Assembly: GCA_028684255.1 (NCBI GenBank)
Contig: JAQUGJ010000002.1
Span: 1 to 36,274, forward strand
DNA length: 36,274 bases
Reading direction: 5' to 3'
From: Bacilli bacterium
GTDB lineage: Bacteria > Bacillota_I > Bacilli_A > RF39 > UBA660
Part shown: one piece after another, positions 464-14,986 of the stretch
Numbering within the stretch: the first letter of the stretch is position 1
Layout: each line of letters opens with the position of its first letter
The notes under the pieces: generated by a model
The model's input: the letters and a program-made list of their open reading frames with translations, nothing else
Databases searched by the model: none
What the model was told of the DNA's origin: nothing
Position numbers and translations under genes: made by a program

Positions 464-2036
464 AAATAAGATGTTATCGGGTACTTCTATTCAAGATATG
501 AAGTTAAAAGTAACTTTCTATGCCAGGGTTTCTACTGATAAAGATGAACAAATACATTCTTTAGAGTCTCAAGTAAGTTATTTTGAGGATTATATTAAAA
601 AAAATTCTAATTGGTCTTTTATTTCTGGATATATAGATGAAGGAATAAGTGGTACTTCAATAAAAAAACGAGAAAATTTTATTCAAATGATTAAAGATGC
701 TAAAGATAATAAATTTGATTTAATATTAACTAAAGAAATATCCAGATTTTCAAGAAATACAATCGATAGTATTAAATATACCCAAGATTTATTACAATAT
801 GGTGTTGGGGTTTATTTTTTAAATGACAATATTAATACTATTCTTCCTGATAGTGAATTAAGGTTAACTATAATGGCTAGTGTTGCCCAAGATGAAGTTA
901 GAAAGTTATCGGAAAGGGTTTCTTTTGGAATGAAGAGATCGATTGAAAATGGTGTTGTTTTAGGATGTTCTAATATCTATGGTTATACTAAATCAAAAGG
1001 TAAGTTAATAATTGATGAAAATCAAGCTGAAATGATTAGATTTATCTATGATAATTATGCGAATACTTCAATTTCTTTATCATCTTTATCAAAGCTATTG
1101 TTTAAAAAAAATTACTTAAATACTAAAGGAAATAAAATTGATATAATGGTGATTCAAAGGATAATTGCAAATCCTAAATACAAAGGTTACTACTGTGGAC
1201 ATAAGACTAAAATAGTTGATTATAGAACTAAATTAAAACAAAAATTAAATCAATCAGATTGGAAAGTATATAAAGATTTTGAAAATGTGCCACCTTTAGT
1301 AAGTGAGGAATTATGGGAGCGTGCTAATGAAAAGTTAAAAAAAATTAAAGCTTCTTTTAGAAACCGCAATCAAGATACTAAGGTATTTCAGAATAGATAT
1401 ACTTACAGTGGTAAAATATTTTGCAAGACCCATGATTCCTCTTACCATCGTAGTAGTTCAGGTGCTAGATTAAAAAATCCGGCTTGGGAATGTTCAATTT
1501 ACCGTAAAAAAGGTATTAAAGGATGTTCTAATTCAAAGTTGTTTGAGTATCAATTAGATAAATTTTTTAACGATTTAATTAATATTGATAATGAAATAAT
1601 CTCTAATTTATTAGATTATTATAAACTATATTTAGATAAAAATGATTTAAATATTTCTAAAAAAATAAGTAATTTAGATATGAAAAAAAATAAGTTATTA
1701 GATCTATATATTGAATCTAAAATATCAAAAAAAGATTTTTTAATAAAAAAAGAAGAGTTAGAACTTGAAGTTAAAGAAAATATTAATAAAGAAAAATCAA
1801 TTAATAAATTAGATATAATTAAAAGTGAATTAATTAAAAGTAGTCATTCATGCTTTAATGAAATATTTAATTCTTTAATAGATAAAATAATAGTTGAGCG
1901 TGAAGATTCTAAAGCTAAATTAGAGATTAAATTTAAATCAAATAAAGTTATATATGCTATAAGTGATAAAAAGGGTCATAACTTTCATTTAACTGATTAC
2001 TATACAACAAATAACAGCAGTAAGTGCAGCAATTAA
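444..2036 (+). CDS. Large serine recombinase (resolvase catalytic domain, recombinase domain, zinc ribbon and coiled coil)
   Basis: N-terminal FYARVSTDKDEQ..SLESQ (catalytic Ser) and DLILTKEISRFSRN, MASVAQDEVRKLSERV. The middle part is a recombinase domain (GYTKSKGKLIIDENQAEMIRFIY). A Cys/His ribbon follows (FCKTHDSSYH...WECSIYRKKGIKGC), then a Lys/Glu-rich coiled coil. AAGGA RBS lies 5 nt upstream of the ATG. Confidence 0.9.
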   Translation: MNLYQIRNKMLSGTSIQDMKLKVTFYARVSTDKDEQIHSLESQVSYFEDYIKKNSNWSFISGYIDEGISGTSIKKRENFIQMIKDAKDNKFDLILTKEISRFSRNTIDSIKYTQDLLQYGVGVYFLNDNINTILPDSELRLTIMASVAQDEVRKLSERVSFGMKRSIENGVVLGCSNIYGYTKSKGKLIIDENQAEMIRFIYDNYANTSISLSSLSKLLFKKNYLNTKGNKIDIMVIQRIIANPKYKGYYCGHKTKIVDYRTKLKQKLNQSDWKVYKDFENVPPLVSEELWERANEKLKKIKASFRNRNQDTKVFQNRYTYSGKIFCKTHDSSYHRSSSGARLKNPAWECSIYRKKGIKGCSNSKLFEYQLDKFFNDLINIDNEIISNLLDYYKLYLDKNDLNISKKISNLDMKKNKLLDLYIESKISKKDFLIKKEELELEVKENINKEKSINKLDIIKSELIKSSHSCFNEIFNSLIDKIIVEREDSKAKLEIKFKSNKVIYAISDKKGHNFHLTDYYTTNNSSKCSN

Positions 2037-2667
2037 TGGTGGTGTCTTATATCAACCATATATAGTTAAAAGTTTAAATGAACCAGAAACTAATAGTGTG
2101 ATTTTAGAAAATAGTCCTAAAGTAGTTAGAAAGGTTATTAGTGAAGATACTAGTTTAAAAGTAAGAGATGCCTTAGAAAAAGTTGTTTCATATGGGACTG
2201 GAAGAAATGCGTTTATCGATGGATATAGAGTAGGCGGTAAGACAGGTACTGCTCAAAAGGTTTTAAATGGTAGATATATGGTAGGAAACTATATTACTTC
2301 TTTTATTGGTTTCTTACCAGCAGATAATCCTGAAGTTGTTGTTTATATCGCTATTGATAATGCTAAAGGTGTTACACAATATGGAGGAACAATAGCAGCG
2401 CCTATTGCCCGTCAAATATTACTAGATAGTATAAATGCTTTAGAAATAGAAAGAAGAAAAGATGGTCTTGAAAAAAAATATAATTATTTTGACCGTAAAT
2501 ATGCTGTTATTCCTAATGTTGTTGGATTAAAACCTAAAGAGGCAGTAAAAGAATTAAAAAAATTTAAAGTTGAGTTTTCTGGTAAGGGTGAGAAAGTAAT
2601 CCATCAATCACCAACACCTGGTTTAAATATCTATGAAGGTGAAATTGTCAGATTAATGCTCAACTAA
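1993..2667 (+). pseudogene. 3' segment of a split class-B penicillin-binding protein gene (SpoVD/PBP2B/FtsI-like; KTG box and one PASTA domain only)
   Basis: Frame-1 translation from 1993 reads LITIQQITAVSAAINGGVLYQPYIVK...GTGRNAFIDGYRVGGKTGTAQK...FIGFLPADNPEVVVYIAIDN...GGTIAAPIA, followed by a PASTA-like C-terminus (VIPNVVGLKPKEAVKELKK...). An in-frame TAA at 1990-1992 closes the frame upstream. There is no RBS or credible start. The TM anchor, SxxK motif and SxN motif are all missing. Confidence 0.85.
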
Positions 2668-2675
2668 TTGTAAAT

Positions 2676-2706
2676 AAGCAAGACTTAATTTGTCTTGCTT
2701 TTGTTT
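2676..2706 (+). terminator. Rho-independent terminator after the PBP fragment
   Basis: Perfect 9-bp stem AAGCAAGAC (2676-2684) / GTCTTGCTT (2692-2700) with a 7-nt loop, followed by TTGTTT. Confidence 0.8.
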
Positions 2707-2751
2707 ACAAATGGTAATATATTAGATATAATTAAGAAGGTAGGTGAAGAT

Positions 2752-3912
2752 ATGTTTAGGAAAACATACATAGAGATCGATTTAGATGTTATTAAAGACA
2801 ATGTTTCTAATATCATTAACAAATACAATGATTATGATTATTATTTTGGTGTTGTTAAAGGTAATGCTTATGGACATGGTATAGAAGTAATAGGACCTAT
2901 GATTGAATCTGGTATTAATTATTTAGCAGTTTCTAATTTAGATGAGGCAATCGAAGTTAGAAATAGTTATCAAAATATCCCGATTCTTTGTTTAGAACCA
3001 ATTGATTTAGAGTATATAGATGAATGTATTTTAAATAACATTGCAATAACTATTAGTAGTTATCAATATTTTAAAGAATTAAAAAAATTAGATAAAAAAG
3101 GATTAAAGGTTCATTTAAAGATAGATACTGGTATGAATCGTATAGGAATTGATGACTCTAAAAAAATTGAAGAGATTTATTATAATTTAATTGATAATAA
3201 AAAAATTGAGTTAGAAGGAATTTTCTCTCATTTTGCGACCCCAGGACTATATGACGTTAGATGGAATGAACAAGTTGATAAATTTAGAAAATTAACTCAA
3301 AACATCGATTTAAATAAGGTTCCAATTGTTCATATGGGTAGTAGTAATTCGATTGTAATACATCCTAAAATAGACTTTTGTAATGGTGTTAGATTGGGAA
3401 TTTTAATGTATGGAGTTTCACCTCGTAAGTTAAATTTTAAAGGTTTTAAAGGATATCTTAGAAAATTAAAATATACTCATTTATGGAAGAAAAATAACAT
3501 TCAAATTGCACCTGATTTTGATATAGATGTCAAAGATGCATTTTCTTATATAACTGAGGTTATGGAAATAAAAAATATTAAAAAAGGGAGTTTTATTGGA
3601 TATGGTAATAACTATCAAGCAGAAGAAGATATGTTAATAGCGGTTTTACCAGTTGGTTATGCTGATGGTATAAATCTTAATAATACTTTGAGAATGGTGG
3701 TTATAAACGATAAAAAATATCAAATTGTCGGTGATGTTAGTATGGGTATGATAACGGTTAAAATCGACGAAGATGTACATTTAAAGGACAAGGTATATTT
3801 AATAGGCAATGGTATTAGAATAAGGGATGTCGCTAGTTATATAAAGTGTACTCCACATTATGTTGTTACTAGTATTCCATCATCAGTACCAAGGATATAT
3901 AGAAAGAGGTAA
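2752..3912 (+). CDS. alr: PLP-dependent alanine-racemase-family amino-acid racemase
   Basis: VVKGNAYGHG (PLP-binding Lys), HLKIDTGMNRIG, FSHFA, PVGYADG and the GYGNNY region. The start is moved to ATG 2752 (RBS AAGGTAGGTGA) because the ORF-track extension from 2695 overlaps the upstream terminator. A basic insertion of about 25 aa (KLNFKGFKGYLRKLKYTHLWKKNN...) follows the YGVSP motif, compared with canonical Alr. Confidence 0.8.
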   Translation: MFRKTYIEIDLDVIKDNVSNIINKYNDYDYYFGVVKGNAYGHGIEVIGPMIESGINYLAVSNLDEAIEVRNSYQNIPILCLEPIDLEYIDECILNNIAITISSYQYFKELKKLDKKGLKVHLKIDTGMNRIGIDDSKKIEEIYYNLIDNKKIELEGIFSHFATPGLYDVRWNEQVDKFRKLTQNIDLNKVPIVHMGSSNSIVIHPKIDFCNGVRLGILMYGVSPRKLNFKGFKGYLRKLKYTHLWKKNNIQIAPDFDIDVKDAFSYITEVMEIKNIKKGSFIGYGNNYQAEEDMLIAVLPVGYADGINLNNTLRMVVINDKKYQIVGDVSMGMITVKIDEDVHLKDKVYLIGNGIRIRDVASYIKCTPHYVVTSIPSSVPRIYRKR

Positions 3913-3914
3913 GT

Positions 3915-5132
3915 ATGGATTTTGAAATAGTTTTAATAGGAACGGATATTAATAGTTATTATATGGCTAGAAATACACATGAAGCTTATAATAAAAAAGC
4001 TTATGTAATTGGTAAGGAACCGATGAAGTTTACTAGTTATAGTAAGATAATTAATCTACAAATAGAACCAAGATTACATGAAAAAGAAGTGTTTATTCGT
4101 GTGTTAGAAGATTTTGCACTAAAACATCAAGATAAAAAATTAATTTTGATTCCTACTAATGATAATTATGTTAGATTAATAATTGAAAATAAAGAATTTT
4201 TCAAAAAATATTATTTATTTAATGATATAAGTGAAGAGTTAATGAATAGTTTATTAGTTAAAGATAAATTTTATGAAGTGTATGAAGACTCTTCAATTGA
4301 TTTACCAGAAACTTATATATACAATATCAATGATGAGTTAGATTTAAAACGTGTTTCAAAGTTAGGACTTCCAATTATAGTGAAACCTGGTGATGGAGTT
4401 AGTTATCATCATCATGAGTTTGAAAATCAAGCTAAGGTTTATAAATTAAAAAGTGTCGAAGAATTGATATCAGTTGTTAAACAAATAAAAGATTCTAAAT
4501 ATAACGGTACTTTGATTTTACAAAAATTTATATCTGGGGATGATAGTTATTTATGTGATGTTATATTTTATTGTGACCATACAAGAAAATGTAAGTTGAT
4601 GACTTTTGCCCAAATAGGATTACAAGAGCGCACTATAACAGGTGTAGGTAATTGTACTGTTTTAGTTAATGGCTATTGTAATTTAGGTCCTTATGGTAAA
4701 ACAGTAGAACAGTTAAGAGAATTTATAGATACACTAGATTATCAAGGTTTTGCAGAGATTGACTTAAAATATGATGAAGACGATCAAAAGTTTAAGGTTT
4801 TAGAAATTAATCCACGCCAAGCTAGATCAAGTTATTATTTGACACCTTGTGGTTATAATATTGTAAAGTATATTGTAAATGATTTGTTGTATAAAAAAGA
4901 GTTAGAATTTGAATTTATTGATCAAGAGGTATGTTTATCTTTTGTACCTAAGAAAGTAATCGATGATTATGTTTTAAATCGTGGCCTTAAAGATAAAATA
5001 AATGAGTTAATAAAACAAAAAAGATTTTATGATCCACTTGATTATTCAAAAGATAATTTGTTAAAAAGGAAGCTTTGGCTTTCTTTAAGAAAGTTAAATT
5101 ATATTAAAAAGTATAAAGAAAATAATTGGTAG
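3915..5132 (+). CDS. ATP-grasp carboxylate-amine ligase, D-aspartate-ligase (Asl)-like
   Basis: The N-terminus IVLIGTDINSYYMARNTHEAYNKKAYVIG matches the signature I recall for the Asl/carboxylate-amine ligase family. There is a central ATP-grasp core (IIVKPGDGVS, LILQKFISG, EINPR). The start is 2 nt after the racemase stop. Confidence 0.6.
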   Translation: MDFEIVLIGTDINSYYMARNTHEAYNKKAYVIGKEPMKFTSYSKIINLQIEPRLHEKEVFIRVLEDFALKHQDKKLILIPTNDNYVRLIIENKEFFKKYYLFNDISEELMNSLLVKDKFYEVYEDSSIDLPETYIYNINDELDLKRVSKLGLPIIVKPGDGVSYHHHEFENQAKVYKLKSVEELISVVKQIKDSKYNGTLILQKFISGDDSYLCDVIFYCDHTRKCKLMTFAQIGLQERTITGVGNCTVLVNGYCNLGPYGKTVEQLREFIDTLDYQGFAEIDLKYDEDDQKFKVLEINPRQARSSYYLTPCGYNIVKYIVNDLLYKKELEFEFIDQEVCLSFVPKKVIDDYVLNRGLKDKINELIKQKRFYDPLDYSKDNLLKRKLWLSLRKLNYIKKYKENNW

Positions 5133-5141
5133 AGGTGAATT

Positions 5142-6545
5142 ATGAATCAAAAAAAAGAACTTCTAAAGAATACCTTTATGATTGCTTTTGGAAAAAGTAG
5201 TACTCAAGTAATCAGTTTTCTTTTATTACCATTATATACATCGATTTTATCGACATCGGAATATGGAGATTATGATTTACTTAATACTTTATCAATTTTC
5301 ATTATCCCTTTTATAACTTTATTGATTGAAGAAGCAATGTTTAGATTTTTAATCGATGCTAAAAATGATGAAGAAAAAAGTGAAGTTATTAGTCACGCGG
5401 TGATTGTGACTTTAACTAATATGGTTATAGGTGCAGGGGTTATATATCTATGTGGTACTATTTTTAATTATCCATATACCGTTTATTTAATTTTTTTTGT
5501 TTTAGCGAGTATATTAAGTACTTTAGCAGGGTCTTGTTCAAGAGGACAGGGAGATTATAAACTGTATTCAATATTTGCGTCTTTATCTAGTTTATTTACA
5601 GTAATATTGAATGTTGTTTTTATTGCAATTTTAAAATGGGGAGTAGTTAGTTTATTTTTAGCATATATAATAGCGAATGCATCTGTATCTATTTGGCTTT
5701 TATTAAAGATGAATGTTCATAAATTGCTTTCTTTTAAAAAGATAAATAAGAGCAAATTAAAAGAGATGTTAAAGTACTCAATTCCATTAGTACCCAATAG
5801 TGTCTCTTGGATTATTATTAATTTATCAGATAGGTTAATTATTGTAACTTTTATTAATACAGCTGCTAATGGTATATATGCGATTTCTAATAAGTTTTCT
5901 ACTATTATAAATACTTTTTATTCGTTTTTTTATATGGCTTGGAAGGAATCTGCTTCTAAGGTTTTTGATAAGGAAGATAAGGATAAATTTTATAATAATA
6001 TTTATATTAATTTAAAACATTTGTTGATGGCTGTAAGTATCGGTATGTTAGCATATTTACCTTTTGTGTTTCCTGTTTTAGTTAATAAGGAATACTACGA
6101 TGCTTATCAATATATTCCAATCTTAATTTTAGCAGTTTATTTTAATAATATTTCTAGTTATTGTGGTGGCATTTTTGCAGCCTATAAGGATACTAATACG
6201 ATGGGATTAAGTACTCTTATAGCAGCTATTATCAATATATTAGTCAATATTTCATTAGTTAAACATATTGGTTTATATGCAGCGGTTATTTCTACTTTAT
6301 TGGCTACTTATGCTGTATATCTTTACCGCATTAAAAAGATGAAAAAATTTTTAATTTTAGATAAAGATAAGTATGGTTTAATAAGTGGTTTAATATTTGG
6401 ATTTTTACTACTTACTTATTACTCTGATAATTTAATAATGTATATAGTTGGGGTACTAGTTGGAACTATATATCCATTTTATTTAAACCTCAATATTGTT
6501 AAAGCAATATTAAATAAGGTGTTTAAAAAAAGGGTTAGTCAATAA
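5142..6545 (+). CDS. MOP-superfamily flippase (Wzx/MurJ/SpoVB-like polysaccharide or lipid-linked precursor transporter)
   Basis: 467 aa and multi-TM throughout, with a typical N-terminus (KNTFMIAFGKSSTQVISFLLLPLYT) and the LVPNSVSW motif region. GAGGTGA RBS. Confidence 0.75.
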   Translation: MNQKKELLKNTFMIAFGKSSTQVISFLLLPLYTSILSTSEYGDYDLLNTLSIFIIPFITLLIEEAMFRFLIDAKNDEEKSEVISHAVIVTLTNMVIGAGVIYLCGTIFNYPYTVYLIFFVLASILSTLAGSCSRGQGDYKLYSIFASLSSLFTVILNVVFIAILKWGVVSLFLAYIIANASVSIWLLLKMNVHKLLSFKKINKSKLKEMLKYSIPLVPNSVSWIIINLSDRLIIVTFINTAANGIYAISNKFSTIINTFYSFFYMAWKESASKVFDKEDKDKFYNNIYINLKHLLMAVSIGMLAYLPFVFPVLVNKEYYDAYQYIPILILAVYFNNISSYCGGIFAAYKDTNTMGLSTLIAAIINILVNISLVKHIGLYAAVISTLLATYAVYLYRIKKMKKFLILDKDKYGLISGLIFGFLLLTYYSDNLIMYIVGVLVGTIYPFYLNLNIVKAILNKVFKKRVSQ

Positions 6546-6593
6546 TTAATTAAATATTTAATTATGTTAAAATTATAAAATAGGAGTGATAGT

Positions 6594-8066
6594 TTGAAAA
6601 GACGAGGATTTACTTTAATGGAATTACTAGCAGTTATTGTTATTTTAGCAATTATTGCTTTAATAGCAGTACCGATTGTTCTTGATTATATTAATGAAGC
6701 TAAGATAAAGACTTATGTTAGTAATGAAAACTCTGTTAAAGAAGCCGCTAAATTATATTTAACGAGAAATTTAGATGAACTTCCAAAAAATATAGGCGAT
6801 ATTTATGAACTAAGTATTAAAGACTTATATGAAGGTAATTATTTGGAACAAATAAACGATCCTGAAAGAAGTTCAATTAAATGTAATGGTTATGTTATAG
6901 TAACTAAGTTAGGATCTAATTCATTTGATTATAGCCCACATTTAAAATGTGGCGATATGAATTATGTTAACAATTCTTTAGAAGATGGGATAGTTGCCCA
7001 TTATAAATTTGATGATTTTCAAGAACCAACTGTTAATTTAGTTGTAAGTCCTGAATTTTCTAATGGTTCTTTAGGACTAAAATGGGGTAGTTGGGAAAAT
7101 TCTGTTTTAACGTTTGAAAGATTAAGTTTATTAGGACAAGAAACTAATGTCACTAATATGACAAAAAGAACAGCTGGTACTACTAATGCTATTCATCAAG
7201 CGATTCCTAATTTAACGATTGATTCACCTTATACATTATCTTTTTATGCAAGAATAAATCCTAATTCATTAAGTGATTCTGGAAAAATAAAGGCCTACAT
7301 TAATGGTTATGTCGATTATTCAATTACTAAAGAGTGGACAAGGATAAGTTTGACTCAAATTGCTAAAGCTACTTCACAAACTATTCATATTACTCAGTTT
7401 AGTCCTGAATATGATGTTCAAATTGCCTATGTTAGTTTAGAAAATAAAGAGTATTCAACTGACTTTGTAAATGGTACTAGAACAGCAAAAATTAAGGATT
7501 ATTCTGGCCATGGATACGATAGTGGTTTAGATCCTTTAACATCTCCTAAGTGGGTTAATAATGGTAATAAGAATACAGGTGCTTATAAGTTTAGCAAAAA
7601 TAATGAGGTTATTACTGCTTATGATGTTTTAACTAATGTATTTAATAATCAATCTTATTCATGGGGTGCTTGGATAAATATCGATAATAGTTTTAGTAGC
7701 AATGGTCGAATTTTAATGAGTCAAAGTAATGCTTTAGAACTATCTATTAATTCATATCGAAAAATTTATATTAGTTATAAGGATCTAAATAAATGGAATA
7801 GTTTAACTGCGAGTCCAATACTTTCTAAGGATAATTGGTATCATATTTTTGTGACTTTTGAAGATAATACGATGAAGTTATATATTAATGGTAAATTAGA
7901 AGGTGAATTAATAAGTGATGATTTTATAAATCCAAGTGATAATATATATATCGGTAATTGGTCTTCTAATCAAGTTTTTAAAGGTATGATCGATGATGTT
8001 CGCATATATAATCGTGCTCTTGATAAATTAGAAGTTGAAAGAATATATTACACAACAAAATCGTAA
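6594..8066 (+). CDS. Type IV pilin/pseudopilin-like protein with C-terminal beta-sandwich and LamG (concanavalin-A-like) domains
   Basis: TTG start after an AGGAG RBS. The class III signal MKRRG|FTLMELLAVIVILAIIALIAVP has Glu at +5. A pilin head-like region with 2 Cys follows. The C-terminus carries the LamG_3-type signature (WYHIFVTFEDNTMKLYINGKLE...IYIGNW...FKGMIDDVRIYNRALDKLEVERIY). Confidence 0.8.
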   Translation: MKRRGFTLMELLAVIVILAIIALIAVPIVLDYINEAKIKTYVSNENSVKEAAKLYLTRNLDELPKNIGDIYELSIKDLYEGNYLEQINDPERSSIKCNGYVIVTKLGSNSFDYSPHLKCGDMNYVNNSLEDGIVAHYKFDDFQEPTVNLVVSPEFSNGSLGLKWGSWENSVLTFERLSLLGQETNVTNMTKRTAGTTNAIHQAIPNLTIDSPYTLSFYARINPNSLSDSGKIKAYINGYVDYSITKEWTRISLTQIAKATSQTIHITQFSPEYDVQIAYVSLENKEYSTDFVNGTRTAKIKDYSGHGYDSGLDPLTSPKWVNNGNKNTGAYKFSKNNEVITAYDVLTNVFNNQSYSWGAWINIDNSFSSNGRILMSQSNALELSINSYRKIYISYKDLNKWNSLTASPILSKDNWYHIFVTFEDNTMKLYINGKLEGELISDDFINPSDNIYIGNWSSNQVFKGMIDDVRIYNRALDKLEVERIYYTTKS

Positions 8067-8068
8067 TT

Positions 8069-8095
8069 AAGATCTCTTAAGGAGATTTTTTTTAT
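8069..8095 (+). terminator. Rho-independent terminator after the pseudopilin-LamG gene
   Basis: AAGATCTC (8069-8076) pairs with GAGATTTT (8082-8089), including one G-U pair, around loop TTAAG. A T-run follows. Confidence 0.5.
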
Positions 8096-8145
8096 TGTGT
8101 TCTTTTTTTAGGTGATTTTTCATATTTTTTTATGAGGATGATAAT

Positions 8146-9135
8146 ATGTTAATTATGACTAAATCTGTATTAGCGACTATGATCGGTTTTGTTTTAGCAG
8201 TAATGGTTGGACTTGTTTTAATACCTATTTTTAAGAAGAAAAATGCTCGTCAAAGGTTAAGTATTTATTTAGAAGAACAACATAAAACTAAAAACAATAC
8301 ACCAACAATGGGTGGATTAATTTTTATCATACCGACTTTATTTACGACCGTAATTTTATTTTTATTAAATAAAATAGATTTTAGTTACAGTTTATTAATA
8401 GTTATTTTTGTATTTGTTAGTTATTCTATAATCGGATTTATTGATGATTATTTAATTTTAAAAAGAAAGAACAATAAAGGTTTAAGTGAAAATTCTAAGT
8501 TGTTATTACAATTTATAATAGCGCTTGTCTTTTTTGCATTATTTATGCTTGAAAATGAGCCATTATTGTGGGTTCATTCTTTAAATATAAAGTATGATAT
8601 TGGTTGGTTATATGGAATTTTTATATTGTTGGTATTAGTTGCAAGTTCTAATGCGGTTAATATTACTGATGGGCTAGATGGATTAGCAGGGGGACTTTCG
8701 GTGATTGCTTTTTTTACTTTTGGTTTAATATCATGGAATAGTGGTTGGTTAGCAGGATACCAGGATATTGCTTTATTTTGTTTTATTTTAGTAGGTTCTT
8801 TATTAGGATTTTTAGTTTTTAATGTCTATCCGGCTAAGATATTTATGGGGGATACTGGATCTTTAAGCTTAGGGGCTTTATTAGGTACTGTTGCTATATT
8901 AACAAGGCATGAATTATTGCTAATATTAATAGGTATTGTTTTTGTTATTGAAACTTTGTCTTGTATTTTACAAAGGTACTATTATAAATTAACTAAGAGA
9001 AGACTTTTTCCAATGGCACCATTACATCATAGTTTTGAAAAAAAAGGTTTTAAGGAATCTGATATTGTTAAAATATTTTGGATAGTTGGTTTATTAGCGT
9101 CTATGATTGCTATTACTTTTGGAGTTTGGATATGA
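8146..9135 (+). CDS. mraY: Phospho-N-acetylmuramoyl-pentapeptide transferase
   Basis: KxxTPTMGG, GFIDDY, NAVNITDGLDGLA, GDTGSLSLG and PLHHSFE motifs. GAGGA RBS. Confidence 0.95.
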   Translation: MLIMTKSVLATMIGFVLAVMVGLVLIPIFKKKNARQRLSIYLEEQHKTKNNTPTMGGLIFIIPTLFTTVILFLLNKIDFSYSLLIVIFVFVSYSIIGFIDDYLILKRKNNKGLSENSKLLLQFIIALVFFALFMLENEPLLWVHSLNIKYDIGWLYGIFILLVLVASSNAVNITDGLDGLAGGLSVIAFFTFGLISWNSGWLAGYQDIALFCFILVGSLLGFLVFNVYPAKIFMGDTGSLSLGALLGTVAILTRHELLLILIGIVFVIETLSCILQRYYYKLTKRRLFPMAPLHHSFEKKGFKESDIVKIFWIVGLLASMIAITFGVWI

Positions 9136-10202
9136 AAAAAAATAGTGTTGAATTATTATTAGTAATATCGGTTGTTGCTTTAACTATCATTGGTCTTATA
9201 ATGATCTATTCATCTTCTAATGTATGGGCTTTATATAAGTTCAATGATTCTTTTAAGTATTTAAAAAATCAAGGTTTATTTTTTATTTTGAGTCTTTTTT
9301 TAATGTACTTAGTAAGTAAGATAGATTATTATAATTATTTAAAAAATTCAAATAAAATATTTTTTGTTATTTTAATATTACTTATATTAGTAATAATACC
9401 TGGTATTGGAACTATGAGAAATGGGAGTCGCAGCTGGTTTGGAATTGGTTCATTTGGAATTCAACCTAGTGAATTTGCAAAATTAGGGCTCATAATATTT
9501 TCATCTAAATATTTATCAAAAAACAGGAAAAGTTTTATTCCTGTTTTAGTAATAGCAATTATTTTTTTTGGACTTATTATGTTACAACCTGATTTTGGAA
9601 CTGGTATTGTTTTAATGATGATTATTGTGGCTTTATTATTTGTATCAGGTGTTGATGTTAATTTTTTTGTAAGAATCGGTTTCTTAGGATTAATAGGTAT
9701 AACGGGTCTTATTTTAGTAGCACCTTATAGATTACAAAGGATTTCTTCTTTTATTAATCCTTGGAATGATCCTTTAGGAAGTGGATTTCAAATAATTCAA
9801 TCTTTATATGCGATAGGTCCTGGAGGATTGTTTGGTTTTGGATTAGGAAATTCAAGACAAAAGCACTTTTATTTACCAGAACCTCAAACGGATTTTATAT
9901 TTTCAATTATATGTGAAGAATTAGGGTTTTTTGGTGTCTTATTAGTGGTTTTTCTTTTTATTCTCATAATTTCCACTGGTTTTAAGATAGCCTCTAAATG
10001 TGAGGATTTATTTGGCAAATTTTTAGCCTTTGGAATTACTTTTTGGATAGCGTTTCAAACTGTTCTTAATTTAATGGTGGTAGTTGGATTGATACCAGTA
10101 ACAGGAGTTACATTGCCTTTTCTTTCTTATGGAGGATCTTCTTTACTTATTTTATATATTGCAATTGGTATTGTTTTAAATATAAGTAGATATCAAAGGT
10201 AG
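9132..10202 (+). CDS. ftsW: SEDS-family peptidoglycan glycosyltransferase FtsW/SpoVE/RodA
   Basis: QPSEFAK, GPGGLFGFGLGNSRQK..YLPEPQTDFIF, and PxTGVTLPFLSYGGSS. The start is set at ATG 9132, which overlaps the mraY TGA (ATGA). The ORF-track extension from 9078 lies inside mraY. Confidence 0.9.
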   Translation: MKKNSVELLLVISVVALTIIGLIMIYSSSNVWALYKFNDSFKYLKNQGLFFILSLFLMYLVSKIDYYNYLKNSNKIFFVILILLILVIIPGIGTMRNGSRSWFGIGSFGIQPSEFAKLGLIIFSSKYLSKNRKSFIPVLVIAIIFFGLIMLQPDFGTGIVLMMIIVALLFVSGVDVNFFVRIGFLGLIGITGLILVAPYRLQRISSFINPWNDPLGSGFQIIQSLYAIGPGGLFGFGLGNSRQKHFYLPEPQTDFIFSIICEELGFFGVLLVVFLFILIISTGFKIASKCEDLFGKFLAFGITFWIAFQTVLNLMVVVGLIPVTGVTLPFLSYGGSSLLILYIAIGIVLNISRYQR

Positions 10203-10250: not shown

Positions 10251-11189
10251 ATGAGAGTAAAAGATGGTATCATTGGTTTTGCAGTTGGAGATGCTATGGG
10301 TGTTCCGACTGAGTTTCATAAAAGAGAAGACCTTTTAAAAAAACCTGTTACAAAAATGATAGAAAATAGGTTTGAAGGATTACCTAAAGGATCTTGGTCT
10401 GATGATACTTCTATGGTTGTAGCAACAATATATGCTTTAATGGAAAATGGCTTAAATTATAATAAGATTGCTGATAATTTTATAAAGTGGGTTAATGGTG
10501 ATGATTTTTGTTCTTATAACAAATGTTTTGGTATTGGAAGAACTACTTTAAAGGCTTTGGCAATGTATAATAGAGGGATGTTTAAAGCAGAAGAATGTGG
10601 TGGAAAAGCATTTGAGGATAATGGTAATGGTTCTTTAATGCGTATTCTTCCAATTGGTTATTATTGCCATTATAATAGAATTAATGAATCTGAAACAATT
10701 GATATTGTATCTAAGGTATCTTCTATTACACATGGTAATGAAATTAGTATTTTGGGCTGTTATTTGTATGTTAAATATTTGTCTTACATATTAGATAAGG
10801 ACTCTAAAGAAGAAGCATATAAAAAATTAAAATTATTAGATTTATCTTATTTTAGTGATGATTCTATTATAAGATATAAAAGAATATTAAAAGAAGATAT
10901 AAGTGATTTATATTTGGATGATATTAAATCATCTGGGTATGTAGTCGATACTTTAGAGGCTAGTCTTTGGTGCTTTTTAAAGTCTGATAATTTTAGAGAT
11001 TGTATAGTGGCTGCTATAAATCTTGGTGAAGATACTGATACCATAGCAGGTATAGCGGGTGGTCTTGCCGGCATTTACTATGGATATGAAACAATCCCTT
11101 TGAATTGGTTAAGGGATTTAGTAAAACTAGATTATTTAGTTTTAACTTCTAATAAATTTGAGGATTTTTTGAAAGTAGAGGATGTTTAA
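10251..11189 (+). CDS. ADP-ribosylglycohydrolase family protein
   Basis: GFAVGDAMGVPTEF, WSDDTSM, GNGSLMRILPIG and GEDTDTIAGIAGGLAGIYYG (di-metal ligand motifs). Confidence 0.85.
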   Translation: MRVKDGIIGFAVGDAMGVPTEFHKREDLLKKPVTKMIENRFEGLPKGSWSDDTSMVVATIYALMENGLNYNKIADNFIKWVNGDDFCSYNKCFGIGRTTLKALAMYNRGMFKAEECGGKAFEDNGNGSLMRILPIGYYCHYNRINESETIDIVSKVSSITHGNEISILGCYLYVKYLSYILDKDSKEEAYKKLKLLDLSYFSDDSIIRYKRILKEDISDLYLDDIKSSGYVVDTLEASLWCFLKSDNFRDCIVAAINLGEDTDTIAGIAGGLAGIYYGYETIPLNWLRDLVKLDYLVLTSNKFEDFLKVEDV

Positions 11190-11190
11190 T

Positions 11191-11685
11191 ATGGAAAAAA
11201 GAGATTTGTATAATTTTAATAAAGAGTTAATAGGAAAAACAATTTATAAAAAAGAGGATGTACCTGAAGGTTGTTATATTTTAGTGGTTTTATCATTTAT
11301 TCAAAATAGTAGAAAAGAGTTCTTAATTCAAAAGACAAGTATATCAAAAGGTTTGGAATGGGCTTTTACAGGAGGGCATCCAAAAGAGGGAGAGTCTTCT
11401 TTAATGGGAATATATACTGAAATAGAAGAAGAGTTAGGAATTAAGGTAAAAAATGCTATATGGTTTAAAGAGGTTAAAGGAAAGGACCGAATCTGTGATT
11501 TATATTATGTAAATGAAGATATTAGTTTAGATGATATTGTTATGCAAGAAGAGGAAGTTTCAGATGTTTGTTATGCCACAATTGAAGAGATTCATGATTT
11601 ATATAATTCTGGTTTATTTAAAAAAGGACATTATATGTTATTTAAAGATTGTTTAGAGTATTTAAATAATCAAGGTGATCTATGA
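11191..11685 (+). CDS. Nudix hydrolase
   Basis: Nudix box GGHPKEGESSLMGIYTEIEEELGI, in which the canonical Arg of the RE pair is replaced by Thr. The start is placed at ATG 11191, 9 nt after GAGGA. Confidence 0.8.
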   Translation: MEKRDLYNFNKELIGKTIYKKEDVPEGCYILVVLSFIQNSRKEFLIQKTSISKGLEWAFTGGHPKEGESSLMGIYTEIEEELGIKVKNAIWFKEVKGKDRICDLYYVNEDISLDDIVMQEEEVSDVCYATIEEIHDLYNSGLFKKGHYMLFKDCLEYLNNQGDL

Positions 11686-12254
11686 ATCAAGATAATTTAA
11701 AGAAAATCGAACAAAAAATTCAACTTTGTAATGAATGTAAGGATTTATTAAAATTAAGTTGTGATACTATATCTTTTGGACAAAATACAGATATTTTATT
11801 TGTAGGTGAATCACCTGCAAAAAACGGTTGGATATTAACTGGTAGAGCTTTTTATGACTCGAATGGTAAGTTATTACCTACTGGTAGGGTATTAAATAAA
11901 TTATTAGAGATAATTGATTTATCAATTGACGATATTACTTTTACAGAGGCCTGTAAATGTCATATACCTGATAGAAAAGATTTAAAAAAGTCTTCTTTAA
12001 ATTGTTTAAAGTATTTAGAAGAACAGATTAAAGAATTAAATTGTAAGGTTGTTATTCCGTTAGGAGCGTATCCTACTAAAATATTAATTGATAAAAAATT
12101 CAAAAATTTTAAAGAAGTTGCTGGGGATGTTTTTAGTAAAGAAATAGGTGATAAAGAGGTGTTAATTATCCCGATTTATCATCCTTCACCGATAAATCCA
12201 AATGGTTATAAATTAAATGTGCCAATATTTGAAAAAATTAAGAAATTGAATTAA
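11682..12254 (+). CDS. Uracil-DNA glycosylase superfamily protein (family 4/5-like, Fe-S type)
   Basis: Motif A-like GESPAKNGW and motif B-like YHPSP. The Cys pattern (CxxC at the N-terminus, CKC, and a later C) fits the 4Fe-4S UDG families. The ATGA start overlaps the Nudix stop. Confidence 0.7.
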   Translation: MNQDNLKKIEQKIQLCNECKDLLKLSCDTISFGQNTDILFVGESPAKNGWILTGRAFYDSNGKLLPTGRVLNKLLEIIDLSIDDITFTEACKCHIPDRKDLKKSSLNCLKYLEEQIKELNCKVVIPLGAYPTKILIDKKFKNFKEVAGDVFSKEIGDKEVLIIPIYHPSPINPNGYKLNVPIFEKIKKLN

Positions 12255-13474: not shown

Positions 13475-14986
13475 GTGGATAGAACAAAAAAATTCTTTTA
13501 CAATTCAATATCGGCAATATTCTATCAAATAATTTTAATGATTGTTGGAATTATTATTCCAAGGATTATGCTAAAATATTATGGCTCTGAAATTAACGGT
13601 TTGGTGTCATCTATTACTCAATTTGTATCATATTTTTATTTGGTTGAAGCAGGATTATCAGCAGCAGCAGTTTATGCATTATATAAACCTTTGGCTGATA
13701 AAGATAACAATTCTATTAATGCTGTTGTTTCTGCTGCAAGAAAATTTTATATTCAAACAGGTTATGTTTTTACCTTATTGGTTTTAGTATTTGCAATTTT
13801 TTACTCTTTTTATATAAAAACACCTTTTTTATCTCCAATAAATATTGGATTTTTAGTAATAATTTTAGGTGCTAATGGTGTAATAGATTTTTTTGCATTA
13901 TCTAAATATCGTGTTTTATTAACAGCTGATCAAAAAAATTATATTATTTCCTTATCTTCAGTGGTGTATTTGCTTTTAAATACGTTTATTATAATTATTT
14001 TAGGAACAGAACAAGTAAATATTGTGCTTCTAAAACTAGTAGCGATTTTACCTATATTTTTAAAGTCATTTATGATAATGATATATGCAAAGCATAATTA
14101 TAAATATTTAGATCATAAAGTAGCGCCTAATACAAAAGCATTAGATAAAAGATGGGATGCTCTATATTTACAAATTTTAGGTGTAATACAATCGGGTGCA
14201 CCAATTATAATTTTAACTTTTGTCACTAAAGATTTAAAATTAATTAGTTTGTATTCTATTTATAATATTGTTCTTGCAGGAGTTAATGGAATTTTAAATA
14301 TATTTCAAAGCGGATTACCGGCTTCATTTGGAGAAATAATCGCGAAGGGTGAAAAGAAAACTCTTCAAAGATCATATAATGAGTTTGAATTTTTCTACTA
14401 TTCATTAATAACGGTTATTTATTCAATAACGTTTGTTATGATTATGCCGTTTATTAAGATATATACAAGTGGTATAACTGATTTTAATTATAATATGCCA
14501 ATTGTAGGTTTCTTATTTGTATTGAATGGGTTATTATATAATTTAAAAACACCACAAGGTATGTTAGTAATATCTGCTGGTATGTATAAAGAAACTCGGG
14601 TTCAATCGACAATGCAAGGAATACTTATTGTACTTTTTGGATTAATTTTAACACCTTTTATTGGTATATATGGTGTATTAATAGGCGCTATTATTTCTAA
14701 TCTTTATAGAGATATTGATTTATTATTCTTTGTGCCTAAAAAAATAACAGGATTGACTATTATTAATACTTTAAAAAGAATGTTGAGGGTTTTTATTACT
14801 AGTCTTATTATTTGTTTACCTTTTCTATATATTAATATTGATCCATCAGGATATATTGAATGGATTTTATATGCCTCAGTAATTGGTGTTTATTCTGTTA
14901 TTGTTATGTTAATCATTAGTTTCATTTTTGATAGAAAAGCTTTAATGGATATTATTAAAAGGATTATAAGGATGGTGAAGAGATGA
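13475..14986 (+). CDS. wzx: MOP-family oligosaccharide flippase (Wzx-like)
   Basis: 503 aa and multi-TM, with N-terminus KKFFYNSISAIFYQIILMIVGIIIPRIMLKYYGSEINGL. GTG start. No ATG alternative preserves the first TM segment. Confidence 0.75.
   Translation: MDRTKKFFYNSISAIFYQIILMIVGIIIPRIMLKYYGSEINGLVSSITQFVSYFYLVEAGLSAAAVYALYKPLADKDNNSINAVVSAARKFYIQTGYVFTLLVLVFAIFYSFYIKTPFLSPINIGFLVIILGANGVIDFFALSKYRVLLTADQKNYIISLSSVVYLLLNTFIIIILGTEQVNIVLLKLVAILPIFLKSFMIMIYAKHNYKYLDHKVAPNTKALDKRWDALYLQILGVIQSGAPIIILTFVTKDLKLISLYSIYNIVLAGVNGILNIFQSGLPASFGEIIAKGEKKTLQRSYNEFEFFYYSLITVIYSITFVMIMPFIKIYTSGITDFNYNMPIVGFLFVLNGLLYNLKTPQGMLVISAGMYKETRVQSTMQGILIVLFGLILTPFIGIYGVLIGAIISNLYRDIDLLFFVPKKITGLTIINTLKRMLRVFITSLIICLPFLYINIDPSGYIEWILYASVIGVYSVIVMLIISFIFDRKALMDIIKRIIRMVKR

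Follow-up and report, generated by a model that had tools for sequence, protein, structure and literature searches.

A stretch of 36,274 nt from a Bacilli bacterium (contig JAQUGJ010000002.1; hereafter the window) carries three co-directional genes, for a racemase, an ATP-grasp ligase and a flippase, placed between a 3' fragment of a spoVD-type penicillin-binding protein (PBP) gene and mraY. In many uncultured gut bacteria the first two recur as a conserved pair, whose probable product is a peptidoglycan cross-bridge not yet characterised. The racemase belongs to a ligase-linked group within the alanine racemase (Alr) family, designated Alr*, which is a distinct subfamily with a basic insertion as its hallmark, while the ligase is a relative of the D-aspartate ligases of the Asl type. 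Judged from sequence, the module would work much like that of AslA, RacD and AsnH, and what appears new is the ligase clade, the type of racemase and the non-canonical Alr active-site signature. Literature searches returned no description of an Alr-type racemase paired with an Asl-like ligase. The main features are:

2752..3912, + strand: open reading frame (ORF) for Alr*, a fold-type III racemase, dependent on pyridoxal 5'-phosphate (PLP), of the ligase-linked subfamily, with an ATG start.
3427..3501, + strand: basic insertion of Alr*, about 25 aa (residues ~226-250, KLNFKGFKGYLRKLKYTHLWKKNN), Lys/Arg-rich and predicted to form a helix.
3915..5132, + strand: ORF for an Asl-like ATP-grasp carboxylate-amine ligase of 405 aa, a member of the Alr-linked clade.
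5142..6545, + strand: ORF for a flippase of the MOP superfamily (Polysacc_synt), 467 aa.

The gaps between these ORFs, 2 nt from racemase to ligase and 9 nt from ligase to flippase, agree with the tight packing described in the initial annotation of this DNA. To follow the pair into other genomes, loci were collected from GTDB contigs taken at one genome per species (80 loci) and from metagenome assemblies (several), and 85 non-redundant loci were counted. The best ligase identity among the GTDB species-representative loci is 58%, so the window has no close species representative. An Alr-like gene lies immediately upstream of the ligase gene, on the same strand, in 73 of the 85 loci, and in five more the upstream position falls off the contig. 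Carriers are metagenome-assembled genomes (MAGs) of Bacilli, TANB77 and Lachnospiraceae type, labelled as Bacilli, Erysipelotrichaceae, Mollicutes or Tenericutes, Clostridium sp. CAG:508-like or Lachnospiraceae; the sole cultured carrier encountered was Lachnospiraceae bacterium YSD2013, the cluster look-ups otherwise giving almost only MAGs. Synteny across such distant lineages bears out the functional pairing of racemase and ligase that the initial annotation had proposed. The flanking genes differ widely, which argues that the pair moves as a module, and it is best described as a putative mobile peptidoglycan side-branch module for which the slot in the division and cell wall (dcw) cluster is just one location. 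The murE slot, taken at first as the defining context, does not have that standing: the pair occurs in many contexts and often adjoins murE instead of replacing it.

Within 5 kb of the pair, the recurrent neighbours among the 85 loci are genes for an asparagine synthase (AsnB, 29/85, often the next gene in the operon), a MurE-like ligase (28/85), a MOP flippase (21/85), an M23 peptidase (18/85), an MraY-like protein (12/85), a diaminobutyrate transaminase (EctB, 8/85, Lachnospiraceae only) and FemAB (4/85). The repeated company of MurE-like, AsnB, FemAB, M23 and MOP proteins supports the cell-wall role originally suggested. A search turned up no RacD homologue, either in the window or at the 85 loci. 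The genes for Alr, ATP-grasp ligase, AsnB and MOP protein are consecutive around one ligase (P0272), and another relative has a ligase-MurE arrangement. Identity between AsnB proteins encoded beside Alr-type ligases and those beside RacD-type ligases is 44-55%, no different from the range separating the two classical AsnB, and AsnB was set aside as a discriminator. Neighbouring MurE proteins carry EDPR, EDAR or EDPG, and never DNPR, the motif of MurE specific for meso-diaminopimelate (mDAP) (PMC3829189); this fits a Lys-, Orn- or 2,4-diaminobutyrate (Dab)-type residue 3, which needs a branch.

Two arrangements in relatives may be recorded here. Strain YSD2013 (locus L080, 3229-13844) has a long envelope operon encoding FtsX, an M23 peptidase, an S41 peptidase, Alr*, the ligase, AsnB, a diaminobutyrate transaminase (591 bits on TIGR02407) and a MurE with EDAR replacing DNPR; the gene content hints at 2,4-diaminobutyrate in its peptidoglycan. 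At the CAG-508-like loci L059, L062, L067, L068 and L070 the ligase gene stands beside an EDPG murE and has no adjacent racemase gene.

The Pfam scan of the ligase gave weak, sub-threshold ATP-grasp matches only, and its AlphaFold2 (AF2) model is an ATP-grasp protein with a predicted local distance difference test (pLDDT) score of 93.5. Sequence and Foldseek searches of solved structures found no close relative; the top Foldseek matches in the PDB were all generic ATP-grasp enzymes (TM 0.55-0.63, 10-15% identity), among them CPS, PurK, biotin carboxylase and the L-amino-acid ligase 3VOT, a result that confirms the fold and is silent on the family. An identity as a Ddl/Van ligase was rejected, the Ddl matches in the sequence search of solved structures being marginal (E 0.07-0.27).

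It is at the sequence level that the family can be recognized. The N-terminal GTDINSYYMAR, read at the outset as Asl-like, proves to be the family-wide motif G-x-D-x-x-x-Y-x-x-A-R, common to proteins of Vagococcus, Lacticaseibacillus and Bifidobacterium and to fusions with Asp/Glu racemases. About 35 positions are conserved across the family, including this motif and ExNxRxxR, and the window ligase retains the invariant residues G9, D11, Y15, K116, K157, K174, D283, E297, N299, R301 and R304; K116, K157, K174, D283, E297 and N299, conserved throughout the family, agree with the nucleotide- and Mg-binding residues expected of an ATP-grasp fold. A database clustered at 90% holds 1473 relatives, nearly all metagenomic (the best two 98% and 84% identical, the rest at most 64%), and an exhaustive HMMER search of 50%-identity representatives gave 2095, of which 207 had E <=1e-30. 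NCBI names the homologues 'carboxylate--amine ligase', and JGI names homologues of 54-56% identity 'D-aspartate ligase'.

Alignments to proteins from taxa with Lys-D-Asp walls, and to proteins linked or fused to RacD, are full-length (~400 aa), with 28-37% identity and E of 1e-44 to 1e-77; these proteins, from the same genera or families, serve as proxies for Aslfm and AslA. Examples are:

Vagococcus P0185: 30% identity to the window ligase.
Lacticaseibacillus P0181: 31% identity.
P0128, from an AsnB-ligase-RacD operon: 37% identity.
P0142 and P0147, ATP-grasp proteins fused to an Asp/Glu racemase domain: 32-34% identity.

Proteins from Lacticaseibacillus and Bifidobacterium are also among the relatives of established origin. 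A clostridial locus (L090) has the operon AsnB-ligase-RacD, with a ligase 37% identical to that of the window and a racemase scoring 213 bits on TIGR00035, and in Vagococcus salmoninarum (L091) AsnB is divergent and FemAB follows the ligase. By sequence clustering and full-length identity, then, the protein is an Asl-type relative, as had been surmised, and not one of biotin carboxylase or glutathione synthetase. Fusions occur in distant family members: P0193, P0238, P0245, P0249, P0255, P0267 and P0150 are joined to DegT-type sugar aminotransferases, to FemAB domains or to a receiver domain of the response-regulator type.

In comparison with the AslA/Aslfm, RacD and AsnH system of Lactococcus lactis, Enterococcus faecium and Lacticaseibacillus, the module is alike in having an ATP-grasp ligase of ~400 aa that aligns end to end with the family and whose gene shares an operon with a racemase gene (and, in relatives, with an asparagine synthase gene) in a neighbourhood of peptidoglycan genes. 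It is unlike that system in that the ligase falls in a separate clade, at the 28-37% identity to classical-type proteins given above, bears E281 and D215, and has no racD linkage; the racemase is of the PLP-dependent Alr fold and not of the Asp/Glu-racemase fold.

The assignment of the racemase to the PLP-dependent Alr family stands on its Pfam matches (Ala_racemase_N, 170.9 bits; Ala_racemase_C, 100.3 bits) and on its score of 265.1 bits against the alr equivalog model TIGR00492 (cut-off 168), a match that is split in two by the insertion. The best solved-structure matches are Firmicute Alr, with E near 1e-45, and the AF2 model has a pLDDT of 90.7. The 73 ligase-paired racemases were aligned with 77 canonical Alr (two solved Alr rebuilt from search output and 75 from metagenomes). 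In S. pneumoniae Alr numbering, K40, Y44, R136, H165, R218, Y263' and Y282' are invariant in all 73 and in the window protein. The canonical active-site and entryway signature is not preserved. In G. stearothermophilus Alr it comprises Asp171, Asn203, Asp313', Ile352 and Tyr354, which correspond to S. pneumoniae positions 170, 202, 311, 350 and 352:

D170: D or E in 67/77 canonical Alr; G in 73/73 Alr*; G in the window.
N202: N in 68/77 canonical Alr; R or K in 62/73 Alr*; S in the window.
D311': D in 74/77 canonical Alr; G in 57/73 Alr* and never D (G, N or K); G in the window.
I350: I in 66/77 canonical Alr; T or S in 68/73 Alr*; T in the window.
Y352: Y in 68/77 canonical Alr; Y in 63/73 Alr*; H in the window.

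The basic insertion of about 25 aa remarked on in the initial annotation occurs in every one of the 73 paired racemases and in none of the 77 canonical Alr, and is seen as 40 residues between anchor points against 13 in the canonical enzymes. It sits between the barrel and the C-terminal domain and is modelled by AF2 as an 18-residue helix (residues 231-248, pLDDT 83-91). This conserved basic helix may be a substrate gate or a docking element. The subclade of Alr* that includes the window protein has a non-basic residue at position 202, His or Gln in place of the pocket Tyr (Tyr354 of G. stearothermophilus) and Gly or Lys at 311, and most relatives within it have AsnB in the operon. The nearest insertion-less Alr, from gut metagenomes (L098-L100, ~40% identity), retain the canonical residues, which suggests that Alr* is a specialised offshoot of the Alr family. 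R307' and Q312' were dropped as Alr* markers because these insertion-less Alr already differ there.

Among database relatives of the racemase, the top 120 are without exception of Alr* length, and those with a name are called alanine racemase. The association in the reverse direction, from racemase to ligase, is weakly sampled: among the matches listed in a metagenome search with the racemase there are at least three insertion-bearing Alr* loci, one with an Asl-like ligase and two with a different ATP-grasp protein, as well as three insertion-less Alr (~40% identity) and one truncated match. At L096 (3516-5746) and L097 (3087-5272) Alr* is followed by a 'sugar-transfer associated ATP-grasp' protein (PF14397, ~340 aa) beside a 546-aa MOP flippase. 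The Alr* subfamily thus appears to serve more than one ligase family.

With Alr, VanT and the Bsr/Lyr racemases, Alr* shares the two-domain fold-type III architecture and the invariant catalytic Lys/Tyr and PLP-binding residues. It differs from them in its basic helix, in the constant Gly for Asp171, usual Gly for Asp313', Thr/Ser for Ile352 and usual Arg/Lys for Asn203, and in being always linked to an ATP-grasp ligase. In VanC-type vanT-vanC, the D-amino acid made by an Alr-family racemase likewise goes to a neighbouring ATP-grasp ligase, by which peptidoglycan precursors are altered, and VanT models matched the window racemase weakly. Unlike vanT-vanC, the window encodes an Asl-like and not a Ddl-like ligase (best Ddl E 0.07), and its racemase has neither the membrane domain of VanT nor the Tyr-to-Asn change.

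A ligase, a racemase and an asparagine synthase make up the known toolkit for D-Asp and D-isoasparagine branches (PMC4155827). The L-Lys-D-Asp walls of Lactococcus and the L. casei group are made by AslA, RacD and AsnH, and the Lys-D-Asp taxa represented above by Vagococcus and Lacticaseibacillus proteins carry aslA (PMC4155827). In this chemistry D-Asp is joined by its beta-carboxyl to the L-Lys epsilon-amine of UDP-MurNAc-pentapeptide; AslA passes through beta-aspartyl phosphate, and its acceptor is the Lys residue in the nucleotide precursor (PMC4155827, PMC13631041). The set of ligase, racemase and asparagine synthase occurs with either racemase type, RacD or Alr-like. The reading that we place first, though tentatively, is that the window pair is a side-branch (cross-bridge) module of this kind with a D-Asp branch, in which the PLP-dependent, Alr-fold Alr* would take the place of the usual cofactor-independent aspartate racemase. 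In the pathway we infer, Alr* would turn an L-amino acid, most likely L-Asp, into the D-form; the ligase would activate its carboxylate as an acyl phosphate and couple it to UDP-MurNAc-pentapeptide at the omega-amino group of the diamino acid in position 3. MraY and MurG would then produce branched lipid II, the adjacent MOP protein being a candidate exporter of the branched lipid-linked precursor, and in relatives the asparagine synthase of the operon would amidate the free alpha-carboxyl.

The choice of D-Asp draws on the Asl-type family of the ligase, on the toolkit just described, on the lack of RacD at every locus and on the residues that set Alr* apart. Acidic residues near the active site are lost (D170 to G; D311' to G, N or K) and basic ones are gained (R/K202 in 62/73, K311 or H/Q352 in the subclade of the window, and the Lys/Arg-rich helix), a pattern that fits an anionic side chain. 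These charge changes, taken with the presence of AsnB in both RacD- and Alr-linked operons, put D-Asp on at least an equal footing with D-Ser, D-Ala, D-Lys or D-Orn. The initial annotation had argued from the Alr-type racemase to a substrate other than Asp; on these grounds that step is not established.

Several observations weigh against a D-Asp module. Most Alr* (63/73) retain the Tyr by which canonical Alr are limited to small side chains, Alr* passes the alanine racemase equivalog model TIGR00492, and no Alr-fold aspartate racemase was found in the literature searches. To our knowledge, broad-spectrum Alr-family racemases do not accept acidic substrates. The window itself is without asnB, murE and femAB, the flippase is a short Wzx-like MOP protein, and a large polysaccharide cluster lies 6 kb downstream. 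The pairing of Alr* with PF14397 at two metagenome loci means that Alr* is not bound to Asl-type chemistry alone. In a neighbour-joining tree of 222 family members, midpoint-rooted and drawn without support values, all Alr-linked ligases fall in one 91-leaf clade, and every RacD-linked, Vagococcus, Lacticaseibacillus, Bifidobacterium and fusion protein lies outside it. The clade also gains two acidic residues near the catalytic centre, E281 and D215, which together with Y16 are specific to it: E281 is Asn in 110 of 131 sequences outside and aligns with the catalytic Arg position of Ddl (in a weak Ddl alignment), and D215 is Val or Ser outside. A separate clade with these changes near the active site makes a changed carboxylate substrate plausible.

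A different D-amino acid on the same acceptor amine is a serious, if less favoured, alternative. Alr* would then give D-Ala or D-Ser, or with less likelihood D-Dab, D-Orn or D-Lys, and the diverged ligase would activate the alpha-carboxylate, producing a cross-bridge type to which no enzyme has been assigned so far. The score of Alr* above the alr equivalog cut-off and the conserved Tyr352 (63/73) agree with this, as do the separate ligase clade with its acidic E281 and D215, the lack of any linked Asp/Glu-family racemase at the 85 loci, the Lachnospiraceae operons that add EctB (for Dab synthesis) and MurE, and the missing asnB in the window operon. On the other hand, the AsnB encoded in the operon at 29/85 loci, including most of the nearest relatives of the window, would find nothing obvious to act on in a D-Ala or D-Ser branch, and the acidic loss and basic gain of Alr* speak against a basic substrate. 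Position 352 of Alr* is also not the Asn of VanT serine racemases. Spanning both possibilities, it is somewhat more likely than not that Alr* represents a functional class new among fold-type III PLP racemases and devoted to side branches of peptidoglycan. It would then be either the first aspartate racemase with the Alr fold, replacing RacD non-orthologously, or the supplier of a D-amino acid new to cross-bridges.

The polarity of the ligation could also be reversed, with the ligase activating a stem-peptide carboxyl (on D-Glu the alpha-carboxyl, on mDAP the free one) and attaching the amino group of the D-amino acid, after which AsnB would amidate the new carboxyl to leave a D-alanine-amide-type substituent or a type-B bridge. 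We regard this as unlikely. A racemase, a carboxylate-amine ligase and an amidotransferase would suit a D-aminoacyl-amide substituent, and the active-site changes of the ligase clade would be in keeping with it, but a swap of the carboxylate substrate would be needed in a family that keeps ~35 invariant positions, and MurE neighbours without DNPR, together with FemAB, better suit an amine acceptor at position 3. The survey of Schleifer and Kandler reportedly describes D-Ala-amide or Gly on D-Glu, and type-B bridges of D-Orn or D-Lys, in anaerobic Firmicutes. We know of no enzymes behind these D-Glu substituents and D-Orn/D-Lys type-B bridges, and a literature search for type-B bridge enzymes found none.

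It is very unlikely that the module decorates some other lipid-linked envelope polymer, placing a D-amino acid amide on a sugar acid or amino sugar of a unit that the MOP protein exports. The flippase gene lies directly downstream in the window, a MOP gene is near the pair in 21/85 loci, Alr* accompanies a 'sugar-transfer associated' ATP-grasp protein and a MOP protein in L096 and L097, DegT sugar aminotransferase fusions exist among the more distant ligase relatives, and a polysaccharide cluster occupies 12-33 kb of the window. The dominant neighbours of the pair are nevertheless MurE, AsnB, M23, FemAB and dcw genes, the closest ligase relatives with a name or a defining context are Asl-type, and there is no glycosyltransferase gene in or beside the window operon. 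That the racemase is an uncoupled housekeeping alanine racemase beside an unrelated ATP-grasp gene is the least likely reading: its TIGR00492 score is above the cut-off and alanine racemase is the name its homologues bear at NCBI, but the adjacency holds in 73/85 loci of distant lineages and many flanking contexts, the subfamily-specific changes and the insertion are absent from 77 canonical Alr, and the related gut metagenome contigs L098-L100 carry a canonical, insertion-less Alr at 40% identity.

Cross-bridge chemistry sets the sensitivity of cells to lysins, lysozyme, beta-lactams and cationic peptides and shapes the muropeptides sensed by the host, and for most uncultured gut Firmicutes it is so far not known. 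The portable racemase-ligase pair, often with AsnB, MurE, a Fem transferase, an M23 peptidase or a flippase, offers a genetic marker for branched peptidoglycan and points to an unstudied specificity inside the alanine racemase fold. If the cross-bridge role is true, many abundant uncultured gut Bacillota of Bacilli, TANB77 and Lachnospiraceae type build their cross-bridge by an undescribed route. Under their present names, 'alanine racemase' and 'carboxylate--amine ligase', these genes may lead metabolic reconstructions to count D-Ala sources wrongly and to miss the synthesis of cross-bridges.

The third gene of the trio was annotated from the outset as a MOP flippase, and its match to PF01943 (Polysacc_synt, 70.7 bits, cut-off 28.2) agrees; PF13440 scored 29.9 bits. 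Like Wzx, MurJ and SpoVB it is a multi-pass membrane protein, and MOP genes recur beside the pair. Unlike MurJ and SpoVB, the 467-aa protein had no match to PF03023, TIGR02900 or any SpoVB or MurJ model in Pfam and NCBIfam scans, its only NCBIfam matches being HfsF (44 bits) and MATE (28 bits), and it is best classed as a putative short, Wzx-like MOP protein rather than a SpoVB/MurJ-type one. Orthologues stand beside the pair in L004 (81% identity) and L034 (45%); most other loci have a longer, SpoVB-like MOP protein of 530-570 aa (161 bits on TIGR02900, below the cut-off). From the position of its gene, the window flippase is a candidate exporter of branched lipid II.

The ATG of the racemase at 2752 is preceded by a ribosome-binding site (GGTAGGTGA); a TTG at 2695, upstream of it, is likewise open. 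Two signals precede the operon:

2676..2700, + strand: terminator-like hairpin 3' of the PBP fragment, with a 9-bp stem (4 GC pairs) followed by a T-rich tail.
2704..2732, + strand: sigma-70-type promoter-like site with the sequence TTTACA-17-TATAAT, lying 20 nt upstream from the ATG of the racemase gene.

The hairpin, one of two terminator-like sites in 1900-8300, separates the PBP fragment from the racemase operon. The promoter-like site is the best of the region (11/12) and is a consensus match only, in AT-rich DNA (G+C of the whole window ~26%) where 40 weaker matches were found and 49 expected. With both signals ahead of the racemase gene, the trio looks like a separate transcription unit, as far as consensus matches can tell. 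The other genes around it are:

444-2036: large serine recombinase (Resolvase, Recombinase and Zn_ribbon_recom domains), ending within the start of the PBP fragment in a different reading frame.
2005..2667, + strand: 3' fragment of a spoVD-type PBP gene (end of the transpeptidase domain and PASTA), covering profile positions 412-633 of 636 only in TIGR02214.
6594-8066: prepilin/LamG protein gene between flippase and mraY, with a prepilin-type N-terminal methylation signal and LamG/CBM-like domains.
8146..9135, + strand: mraY (TIGR00445, 307.8 bits, cut-off 192).
9135..10202, + strand: ftsW/spoVE-type SEDS gene (TIGR02614, 394.7 bits, cut-off 337.5; TIGR02615, 429.8 bits, cut-off 448.8).

The murE/murF slot of the dcw cluster, to which the trio had been assigned, is thus recognizable insofar as the trio lies between a PBP gene and mraY, but the PBP gene is only a fragment and the prepilin/LamG gene intervenes before mraY. 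The prepilin/LamG gene is missing from L004, the closest relative. A homology search of the window found no MurE, MurF, RacD, AsnB or FemAB homologue, and of the intact order PBP - murE/murF - mraY - murD - ftsW - murG the window has mraY and ftsW and is without murE, murF, murD and murG; its dcw cluster is degenerate.

What remains of the PBP gene, its last third, abuts the 3' end of the serine recombinase gene, and upstream of the latter lies a glmM-like 3' end rather than the 5' half of the PBP gene. L004, the relative with 84% ligase identity, repeats the arrangement seen in the window, recombinase and PBP fragment (675-2952) included. The recombinase and PBP fragment might represent a skin/gin-like element that splits a sporulation gene, or else a relic; a literature search gave no report tying spoVD to such an element. 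Positions 1-22 of the window resemble an Illumina adapter (CTACACGACGCTCTTCCGATCT) and are an artefact of assembly at the end of the contig.

Directly after ftsW/spoVE, a usual place for murG and further mur genes, 10251-12254 holds genes for an ADP-ribosylglycohydrolase, a NUDIX hydrolase and a uracil-DNA-glycosylase-like protein, with overlapping or abutting ends; the latter two assignments are readings by eye. The region 12337-33488 is a Wzy-type polysaccharide cluster with Bac_transf, Wzy_C, Wzz, a CpsD-like kinase and a sortase. It includes a 503-aa multi-pass protein (13475-14986) that has no Pfam match, and two pyruvyl transferase genes, each followed one or two genes later by a gene for an FrhB-like Fe-S protein.

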